A DNA stretch of 64,000 nucleotides from Escherichia coli (GCF_002854065.1 NZ_CP024147.1), one strand, 5' to 3'; shown: positions 60,815 through 63,487, counted from the stretch's first letter. Notes: a model not told the origin generated them from the sequence alone. A program made the numbers and translations.

Positions 60815-63487
60815 TTAAGCGATGGTACGTTGGATCTCGATGATTTCGAATACTTCGATCACATCGCCAGTGCGGACGTCGTTGTAGTTCTTAACGCCGA
60901 TACCACATTCCATACCGTTACGGACTTCGTTAACGTCATCTTTGAAGCGGCGCAGGGACTCCAGCTCGCCTTCATAGATAACCACGTTGTCACGCAGAAC
61001 GCGGATCGGGTTGTGACGTTTAACCACACCTTCGGTAACCATACAGCCTGCGATGGCACCAAATTTCGGCGATTTGAACACGTCACGAACTTCCGCCAGA
61101 CCGATAATCTGCTGTTTCAGTTCCGGAGACAGCATACCGCTCATCGCCGCTTTCACTTCGTCAATCAGGTTATAGATGACGGAGTAGTAACGCAGATCCA
61201 GGCTTTCCGCTTCAATCACTTTACGTGCAGAGGCATCAGCACGTACGTTAAAGCCAACCAGGATGGCGTTGGACGCCGCAGCCAGGGTGGCGTCGGTTTC
61301 GGTGATACCACCTACGCCAGAACCGATGATCTTCACTTTAACTTCGTCAGTAGACAGTTTCAGCAAGGAGTCGGAGATCGCTTCGACAGAACCCTGTACG
61401 TCTGCCTTGAGGACGATATTCACTTCGTGAACTTCGCCTTCGGTCATGTTGGCGAACATGTTCTCGAGTTTAGATTTCTGCTGACGCGCCAGTTTAACTT
61501 CGCGGAATTTACCCTGACGATAGAGTGCAACTTCACGCGCTTTCTTCTCGTCACGTACAACGGTAACTTCATCACCCGCAGCCGGAACACCGGACAAGCC
61601 GAGGATTTCCACCGGAATGGACGGACCCGCTTCCAGCACTTCCTGACCCAGTTCGTTACGCATCGCACGAACACGACCGTATTCGAAGCCACACAGAACG
61701 ATATCGCCCTTGTGCAGAGTACCTTCACGTACCAGAACGGTAGCAACCGGACCACGACCTTTATCGAGGAAGGATTCGATAACCGCACCGCTCGCCATAC
61801 CTTTACGTACCGCTTTCAGCTCCAGAACTTCCGCCTGCAGCAGGATAGCGTCCAGCAGTTCATCGATACCGGTACCCGCTTTCGCAGATACGTGTACGAA
61901 CTGGCTTTCACCGCCCCACTCTTCCGGCAGGATGCCGTACTGGGAGAGTTCGTTCTTAACGCGATCCGGATCGGCTTCTGGTTTATCGATCTTGTTCACT
62001 GCAACCACCACCGGTACCTGCGCCGCTTTCGCGTGCTGGATTGCTTCGATGGTCTGCGGCATTACGCCGTCGTCGGCAGCAACAACCAGGACTACGATGT
62101 CAGTTGCCTGCGCACCACGTGCACGCATTGAAGTAAACGCGGCGTGCCCCGGGGTGTCCAGGAAGGTGATCATGCCGTTTTCAGTTTCAACGTGGTATGC
62201 ACCAATGTGCTGGGTAATGCCGCCCGCTTCGCCAGAGGCCACTTTCGTTGAGCGAATGTAGTCCAGCAGAGAGGTTTTACCGTGGTCAACGTGACCCATG
62301 ATGGTCACAACCGGCGCGCGCGGTTCAGCCGCAGCACCCGTGTCACGGTCGCTCATTACCGCCTCTTCCAGCTCGTTTTCACGACGCAGGATAACTTTGT
62401 GGCCCATCTCTTCAGCAACCAGCTGTGCGGTTTCCTGATCGATAACCTGGTTGATGGTTGCCATTGCGCCCAGTTTCATCATCGCTTTGATGACCTGAGA
62501 GCCTTTAACCGCCATCTTGTTCGCCAGTTCGCCAACGGTGATAGTTTCGCCGATCACAACGTCACGGTTAACGGCCTGAGCAGGCTTCTGGAAGCCTTGC
62601 TGCAGCGAAGAACCTTTACGTTTTCCGCCCTTACCGCCACGTACTGCTGCGCGTGCTTCTTCACGATCAGCTTTTGATTCAGCGTGTTTGTTGCCTTTCT
62701 TCGGACGCGCTGCTTTCGCGTTACGACCACGGCCACGGCCGCCTTCGACTTCACGATCGCTTTCGTCTTCTGCCTGGCGAGCATGTTGAGAAGTAGTGAC
62801 GTGATAATCGCTGGAATCTTCAGTCGGTTCCGCGTTATCAGTCCATTTGTTTTCTTCCGCCATACGACGTGCTTCTTCAGCAACGCGACGTGCTTCTTCT
62901 TCGAGTTTACGACGCGCTTCTTCTTCGGCTTTACGCTTGAGCTCTGCAGCTTCCTGCTCACGGCGGGCTTTTTCAGCCTGGGCGTTTTTAGTCATATCGT
63001 CTTGTTGATTGCTCACTTTGTCTTTTTCCGCAGCTTCACGTTTCGCTTGTTCAGCAGCTTCACGCTTAGCTTGTTCTGCGGCCTCACGTTCAGCTTTTTG
63101 TTGCGCCTCGCGTTTAGCCGATTCTTCTGCCTCACGACGGGCTTGCTCTTCCGCTTCACGCTGCGCTTGCTCTTCCGCTGCAAGGCGTTCAGCCTCTTGC
63201 GGATCGCGTTTCACAAAGGTGCGTTTCTTGCGGACTTCGATTTGTACCGATTTGCTTTTTCCACCGGTACCAGGAATGTTAAGGGTGCTGCGTGTTTTAC
63301 GTTGCAGCGTCAATTTGTCCGGGCCTGAATTTTTCTGATTCAGGTGGTCAATCAAAGTCTGTTTCTCTTGTGCAGACACAGAGTCGTCAGCAGACTTCCG
63401 GATACCTGCATCAGCAAATTGCTGTACCAGGCGTTCCACGGAGGTCTGTCGCTCTGCGGCCAGCGTTTTAATCGTTACATCTGTCAT
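60815..63487 (-). CDS. infB: Translation initiation factor IF-2
   Basis: 890-aa ORF with a charged repetitive N-terminal region and GTP-binding motifs ([17 protein letters not shown]). Confidence 0.97.

Follow-up and report, generated by a model that had tools for sequence, protein, structure and literature searches.

Degenerate tandem repeats and low-frequency, in-frame length variation in the N-terminal coding region of Escherichia coli infB

Results

The infB locus and its repeats

The stretch of DNA analyzed here (the window) comprises 64,000 nucleotides of one strand of an Escherichia coli genome (GCF_002854065.1, NZ_CP024147.1). According to the list of open reading frames and profile searches, the 890-codon reading frame at 60815..63487 on the minus strand is E. 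coli infB, which encodes IF2-alpha of 890 amino acids (aa). Residues 306-889 of its product match the IF-2 equivalog model TIGR00487 with 987.9 bits (cut-off, 424.4), and the Pfam domains are arranged in the order IF2_N, IF2_assoc, IF2_N, GTP_EFTU, EF-G_D2, IF-2, and GTP_EFTU_D2. With a 481-nt query from the tract studied here, DNA identity was 100% for the infB annotated in E. coli O157:H7 and 99.8% for that of K-12; among the 5,426 complete genomes of E. coli, 5,425 contained a match, annotated as infB. An earlier note on this DNA, made from the sequence alone, had assigned it to infB, and these results bear out the assignment. The nusA gene (63512..>64000, minus strand, from the list of reading frames) is directly upstream of infB in all of the E. 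coli records that were fetched, and the order of the minus-strand reading frames is nusA-infB-rbfA-truB-rpsO-pnp. The DNA to which attention had been drawn (62900-63200) is the well-known infB segment coding for the charged part, rich in Glu, Ala, Arg, and Lys, of the N-terminal region of IF2. The gene, its three isoforms, and this charged region are textbook material and ordinary known biology.

We distinguish two repeat blocks in this region. The first, block A (63017..63199, minus strand; codons 97-157), was delimited from the codon table, periodicity, repeat finding, and the predicted helix described below, and consists of approximately seven 24-nt units of eight residues, followed by AEKDK. 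When the coding strand is written in rows of eight codons, the units follow the pattern xExAxREA; the peptide quoted in the earlier note is the minus-strand translation of codons 111-157. Tandem Repeats Finder (TRF) reported arrays of period 24 at 63022-63096 (3.1 copies, 82% matches) and 63123-63179 (2.4 copies, 84%), and a separate search for repeat families found a seven-copy family with 24-nt spacing. Nucleotide identity at a lag of 24 in codons 97-157 was 0.70, compared with 0.38 +/- 0.04 in 5000 codon shuffles (z = 8), and the highest value reached by a shuffle at any lag was 0.58. Thus, a repeat is present in the N-terminal coding DNA, as had been proposed. The description of its units as near-identical and tandem holds for the second adjective and fails for the first: pairwise identity ranges from 10 to 21 of 24 nt, the maximum being reached only by units 6 and 7, both of which encode AEQAKREA, and the other pairs share 10-19 nt. 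One copy is an exact match to the quoted motif GCTTCACG.TTAGCTTGTTC, and the neighboring copy has one extra mismatch.

The second block, block B (62864..62983, minus strand; codons 169-208), was delimited with TRF, the codon table, and the predicted helix. It is located at the start of domain II, is present in all three isoforms, and has the motif RKxEEEAR with a period of 24 or 21 nt; the TRF arrays have period 24 at 62886-62935 (2.1 copies, 88%) and period 21 at 62852-62899. The region as a whole contains head-to-tail units with a defined period (24 and 21 nt) above chance, that is, a tandem repeat. Block B was absent from the earlier note, although the interval 62900-63200 includes the upstream two thirds of it, together with all of block A and both internal start codons; the last third is outside.

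The internal start codons are located between the two blocks. The GTG codon 158 (63014..63016, minus strand; gene nucleotides 472-474) is the start of IF2-beta (IF2-2), and the ATG codon 165 (62993..62995, minus strand; gene nucleotides 493-495) is the start of IF2-gamma (IF2-3); they are five and twelve codons, respectively, past the repeats of block A and upstream of block B. Among 80 species of Enterobacteriaceae, the former is GTG in 79 and the latter is ATG in 71. In K-12, the shorter isoforms were shown to be made from GUG158 and AUG165 (PMC3334882; PMC12297416), and Madison et al. found that the substitutions g474c and t494c at these codons abolish IF2-2 and IF2-3 (PMC3334882). The earlier note placed internal in-frame starts downstream of the quoted peptide, and the two codons are those mutated in that study; the correction to be made is that they are inside the interval 62900-63200, between the blocks. 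Because of this position, block A is translated only in IF2-alpha, whereas block B is translated in all three isoforms.

An AlphaFold2 model of residues 1-300, based on an alignment of 30 species (pTM 0.26), predicts a single helix of 64 residues at 96-159 (pLDDT 83-95), which coincides with block A, a break at 159-165 (pLDDT < 50), which coincides with the internal starts, and a second long helix at 167-215 (pLDDT 74-86), which coincides with block B. The numbers of opposite-charge i/i+4 pairs are 17 in the first helix and 20 in the second, compared with 8 +/- 2.2 in shuffled sequences; such an excess is the pattern that would be expected of a charged single helix. The region between the NusA-binding N1 subdomain and the rest of IF2 is a linker, which has been termed simply a 'flexible linker' (PMC12297416).

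Length variation among species and strains

In 68 of the 80 species of Enterobacteriaceae, block A has seven units; in the other 12 (Phytobacter, Kosakonia, Mangrovibacter, Franconibacter, Siccibacter, and three others), a single additional unit of eight residues is present. An indel of eight residues is the sole type found within block A across these species.

Two methods were used for the complete E. coli genomes. Since megablast cannot bridge a 24-nt gap, gapped blastn was performed with a 361-nt query; 27 records showed less than 95% identity (22 + 4 + 1) and 70 records showed 95-99%. The weakest match, strain SY033, encodes an IF2 of 906 aa with two separate exact 24-nt tandem duplications, and when its allele was used as the query, 15 insertion alleles were listed. 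The second method was a screen with 250 synthetic deletion and duplication junctions (15,258 nt, alternate junctions being reverse-complemented), a subset of a 46-kb library of 776 junctions with microhomology of at least 3 nt at unit-related lags or of at least 5 nt. The wild type scored 48 or less, and the cut-off was set just above this value; in a test of the full library on sampled synthetic alleles, 891 of 908 were detected for microhomology of at least 3 nt.

In-frame length variants, from -96 to +48 nt, were found by the junction screen in 62 of the 5,426 genomes, and all of the matches were inside infB. They comprise 27 block-A records, 34 block-B records, and one probable artefact. 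Each of the 20 representatives that were fetched proved to carry in-frame tandem duplications or deletions (21, 24, 48, or 96 nt), together with zero to two single-nucleotide substitutions. The 27 block-A variants are the same in number as the 27 gapped-blastn records below 95% identity, so that two independent methods agree; the census is independently complete only for block-A indels of approximately 18 nt or more, and otherwise covers junctions of the kinds represented in the screen. Absence of length variation among strains had been named in the earlier note as the result that would count against it, and such variation exists. However, it is rare (block A, 0.5% of genomes; overall, 1.1%, or approximately 0.6% when a clone and a strain recorded twice are each counted once), and thus the locus is not hypervariable. 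With units 60-88% identical, a longest exact repeat of 15 nt, and 98.9% of genomes having one length, it also differs from a phase-variable contingency locus. Since all of the length changes are in frame, infB is not switched off.

In block A, the alleles range from -4 to +2 units among strains, with gains in 15 genomes and losses in 12. The gains of 8 aa consist of a duplicated unit 2, a third AEQAKREA (through three DNA junctions), or a duplicated unit 5, and the gains of 16 aa arise from one 48-nt duplication or from two separate duplications. The losses are of 8 aa (unit 2, or one AEQAKREA through two junctions), 16 aa, and 32 aa. In block B, a deletion of 8 aa (EEEARRKL) is shared by 29 near-identical genomes ('Esc'/CNR20191027), a deletion of 7 aa (EEARRVA) was found in three strains (four records), and a gain of 7 aa was found in one strain; strains with block-B deletions include the Esc/CNR20191027 lineage, AR_0149, H32, and AH21H025. 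With the 29-genome clone collapsed, block-B variants amount to approximately five independent genomes. A literature search with the terms tried found no description of natural infB length polymorphism, which is not proof of absence; papers on heat-evolved strains and on the long-term evolution experiment mention infB, and do not mention indels in this tract.

Breakpoints of the length variants

Each verified allele differs by one microhomology-flanked tandem duplication or deletion, with zero to two unrelated substitutions, except for SY033, which has two separate duplications. The sites used include the longest microhomologies of the region, and each of the three repeats described next has produced both a gain and a loss. 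A map of microhomologies places a 15-nt exact direct repeat, AGCGGAAGAGCAAGC, in two copies at a lag of 24 (63179..63165 and 63155..63141; 63141..63179, minus strand), and this is the breakpoint of the natural duplication or deletion of unit 2 in strains BS74R-D, XJ5.2, SY033, M15, N18-04097, and ETEC4077. The 14-nt repeat GAAGAAGCACGTCG, with two copies at a lag of 21 (62899..62886 and 62878..62865; 62865..62899, minus strand), is the breakpoint of the 7-aa changes in block B, and the 11-nt repeat CGTGAAGCTGC, with two copies at a lag of 24 (63064..63054 and 63040..63030; 63030..63064, minus strand), is that of the gain and loss of AEQAKREA. Further sites are a 10-nt repeat at a lag of 96, 8-nt repeats at lags of 24 and 48, and a few repeats of 4-7 nt. 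Among the 8,540 possible in-frame events per class, the microhomologies at the breakpoints rank 1, 2, 4, 5, 6, 6, 14, 43, 43, and 86. Of the 26 possible events with a microhomology of 8 nt or more, 9 were seen, compared with 5 of the 882 that have 3-7 nt (Fisher P = 5e-12, a figure inflated because the library favored microhomology junctions). Events also recur, in that one 898-aa protein is produced through three different DNA junctions. Breakpoints in register within direct repeats are a signature of replication slippage, and we infer from the sequences that this was the mechanism.

Discussion

The explanation that we prefer, with a probability of roughly 0.85, is that replication slippage is a rare event in the known infB gene, within a helical spacer that tolerates changes in length. 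In this explanation, the degenerate repeats of eight residues (24 nt), together with those of seven residues (21 nt) in block B, would form two long solitary alpha-helices. The predicted helix A (approximately residues 96-159) would make up the distal portion of the linker by which the N1 subdomain, which binds NusA, is joined to the rest of IF2-alpha, and the predicted helix B (approximately 167-215) would open domain II in all isoforms, with GUG158 and AUG165 in a short, putatively non-helical hinge between them. Because the units share exact direct repeats, the longest of 15 nt, at lags of 24 and 21, slipped-strand mispairing or microhomology-mediated misalignment may occasionally add or remove whole units. 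Such changes would always be in frame and probably tolerated by a spacer helix, and thus the variant alleles could be maintained at low frequency in E. coli and Shigella. They could also be spread by recombination between strains. The role of the helices as spacers is suggested by the model and the charge pattern, and near-neutrality of the variants is our assumption.

An unlikely alternative is that the repeat is an adaptive tuning knob, with helix length (12 A per unit) under selection for the coupling of IF2-alpha to NusA in block A and for ribosome-assembly, cold, or drug phenotypes in block B. The helical repeats would then be an evolvable length 'ruler'; changes in block A would readjust the way in which IF2-alpha connects NusA/RNA polymerase with the 30S subunit, and block-B deletions would alter the ribosome-assembly and cold phenotype and confer insensitivity to lamotrigine, a proposal that we likewise consider doubtful. 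NusA is bound by domain I, without which growth is slower (PMC12297416). Indels in block B do away with lamotrigine binding at no growth cost at 15 C (PMC4371806), and the 8-aa deletion in this block is carried by a lineage of 29 genomes (Esc series/CNR20191027). Furthermore, the unit-2 deletion bears the name of the Shigella flexneri IF2, and some genera have an extra unit. However, the variants are infrequent, with 0.5% of genomes for block A and approximately five independent genomes for block B, and the block-A gains and losses are balanced (15 and 12 genomes). The units are also degenerate at the DNA level, unlike those of contingency loci, and their number is conserved in 68 of the 80 species. 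If the ruler reading were true, isolates with block-B deletions would be intrinsically insensitive to lamotrigine-like IF2 binders.

Still less probable is that the repeat acts in the mRNA, as an unstructured, purine-rich standby site or enhancer for initiation at GUG158 and AUG165. The repeat tract stops five codons before GUG158, the start region is unpaired in the centroid fold, and the 18 nt 5' of GTG158 are nearly invariant across genera. However, no unusual RNA structure was found around the internal starts in the fold of 62950-63210, the folding energy of which is ordinary (z = -0.77), and the synonymous sites of the units are not unusually conserved. Natural alleles lacking one to four units exist. 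In addition, the published deletion del1, which begins 14 nt before the IF2-1 start, ends 32 nt before the IF2-2 start, and removes nearly all of block A, still expresses IF2-2 and IF2-3 (PMC3334882).

Recent duplication of the units, or ongoing gene conversion inside E. coli, is very improbable as their origin. Units 6 and 7 do encode the same peptide and are identical at 21 of 24 nt. Nevertheless, of the 34 positions at which neighboring units agree in residue, 19 also agree in codon, where gene codon usage predicts 16.8 +/- 3.0 (P = 0.30), and the same seven units, including both of the AEQAKREA-like ones, are found across genera of Enterobacteriaceae. Since codon sharing is at expectation, we rejected this origin; the DNA is periodic because the protein is, and the duplications are old.

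We give equally little credence to the possibility that the variants are assembly or sequencing artefacts and that the true length of E. coli infB is fixed. Many of the variant records are long-read or WGS-derived chromosomes (CM, OZ, and AP accessions), and Nissle 1917 (CP007799.1) has a second, partial nusA-infB copy with scrambled units; this match is flagged as 'incomplete; partial in the middle of a contig', and we treated it as a probable mis-assembly. However, all of the seven full-length variant proteins used in an exact-sequence lookup were present in a public collection. The 882-aa protein with the unit-2 deletion is on at least 1000 contigs under the name IF2_SHIFL (the Swiss-Prot entry for Shigella flexneri IF2), and the six others are on 570, 398, 353, 88, 64, and 44 contigs from several sources. 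Several alleles are common to unrelated strains from different countries and laboratories, and one 882-aa allele adjoins two different nusA alleles. Unlike typical long-read errors, every change is in frame, is an exact multiple of the repeat period, and has a clean junction at a microhomology. The presence of these proteins on many public contigs and in unrelated strains excludes artefact as a general explanation.

What the census adds is small: it shows that in E. coli and Shigella the length of the tract is polymorphic at low frequency, with changes of the slippage type. For annotators, IF2 lengths of 858-906 aa in these organisms are genuine alleles and not errors. For studies of IF2-NusA coupling, the natural alleles with three to nine units are a ready length series for the spacer idea. 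Its practical value is modest, and the understanding of infB is unchanged.

The closest known repeat of this type is the X-region of Staphylococcus aureus protein A, which is coded by a 24-bp VNTR used in spa typing and varies in almost every lineage. In both genes, in-frame 24-nt units code for an eight-residue repeat, and the copy number changes, in infB probably by slippage, while the frame is kept. In contrast to spa, infB has one length in 98.9% of genomes, and its units are far more degenerate. For the protein, the appropriate comparison is with the ER/K-type charged single alpha-helices (SAH), which serve as rigid spacers, for example in myosin VI and myosin X. The infB tract resembles them in its long predicted solitary helix, approximately 52-59% charged residues, and strong excess of opposite-charge i/i+4 pairs, and the length of the IF2 helix would likewise be tolerant of whole-unit changes. 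The IF2 helices differ from the classical ER/K motifs in that they are richer in Ala (22-28%) and Gln and are known from prediction.

The infB of K-12 is the same gene, with 890 aa, the GUG158 and AUG165 starts, and the same order from nusA to pnp; the window carries the O157:H7-type allele, which differs by 1 nt in 481, and otherwise there is nothing of substance between them. Laboratory alleles of E. coli infB provide the remaining comparison. In all 20 of the spontaneous lamotrigine-resistant mutants of Stokes et al. (2014; PMC4371806) and in six later ones (PMC10486304), the change is an in-frame deletion or duplication within domain II; one of the deletions removes 8 aa and another removes residues 176-192 (PMC4371806; PMC10486304). 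The latter corresponds to 51 nt, a length equal to the distance between the two members of a direct-repeat pair in infB. The natural block-B alleles, -8 (EEEARRKL) and -7/+7 (EEARRVA), are events of this kind too, within the same stretch of approximately 40 codons. Block-B deletions therefore have a known laboratory phenotype, lamotrigine resistance, which counts against neutrality. Unlike the laboratory alleles, the natural ones come from sequenced isolates without known drug exposure, and the block-A variants are in domain I, for which no laboratory suppressor has been reported. Thus, the census turned up natural alleles of the same kind as the laboratory lamotrigine-resistance mutations, and for the development of lamotrigine-type inhibitors of IF2 domain II, this means that laboratory-type in-frame deletions are already present at low frequency in clinical isolates.

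Repeat-unit gain within and beyond E. coli

The 898-residue IF2 protein WP_000133053.1 carries three AEQAKREA units (window equivalent 63030-63080; infB loci L084, L085 and L086). Its coding DNA in WS4437A-1 and O157 Al Ain differs from that in 02B17CRGN002, and the SY033-type alleles show a third junction for the same protein. The shared 898-residue protein is a convergence of independent duplications made in different registers. Among the Enterobacteriaceae, 12 species (L017, L062, L065, L066, L068-L072, L077, L079 and L080) have block A longer by exactly one octapeptide, always inserted after unit 5 and before unit 6, and this is a genus-level counterpart of the within-species length variation.

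Some records need separate comment. L080, titled Citrobacter freundii M-21, has the extra unit and the ENSK motif as in the Kosakonia/Phytobacter group, and the IF2 N terminus encoded by L045, titled 'Chryseobacterium sp. 18061', is of the Enterobacteriaceae type (83% identity); both records are likely to reflect contamination or mislabelling. One 'complete' E. coli genome among the 5,426 searched has no match to this segment of infB, an essential gene; one match fell in a plasmid record, and one genome had four places matching the segment. The 2014 record of Nissle 1917 has an extra, partial nusA-infB copy (L101, NZ_CP007799.1 5111966-5113634), which is annotated as 'incomplete; partial in the middle of a contig' and contains scrambled repeat units (19 residues, not shown); this copy is probably a mis-assembly.

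Internal start codons

The ATG of IF2-gamma (equivalent to codon 165, window 62993-62995) is absent in 9 of the 80 Enterobacteriaceae species (L001-L080), including Mangrovibacter, Trabulsiella and Shimwellia, and GTG158 is retained in 79 of them; judged by these codons, the third IF2 isoform would therefore not be universal in the family.

Antisense reading frames and predicted structure

Two long plus-strand ORFs lie antisense to infB, one of 214 aa over the repeat (window 62684-63328) and one of 571 aa (60416-62131). Translation of the repeat-spanning ORF gives a repeat rich in Phe, Ser, Leu, Arg and Cys. Both are to be expected opposite a coding strand that is stop-poor and rich in GAA and GCN, and nothing marks them as genes.

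The AF2 model confidently predicts (pLDDT about 73-90) a two-stranded beta-hairpin in the Pfam IF2_assoc region (strands 58-71 and 79-92; residues 58-92, window 63212-63316, minus strand). The hairpin sits in the stretch that links the N1 subdomain to helix A, part of the region termed a flexible linker in the literature consulted.

In-frame deletion in domain II

In block B, eight residues of IF2 domain II (EEEARRKL; window equivalent about 62888-62923) are deleted in frame in 29 near-identical genomes, Esc1-29 and CNR20191027 (L090/L106, the infB of NZ_OZ369446.1, and 28 sister records), and 88 public contigs encode exactly this deleted protein. In kind of lesion, the deletion matches IF2-delta8, the laboratory lamotrigine-resistance allele.
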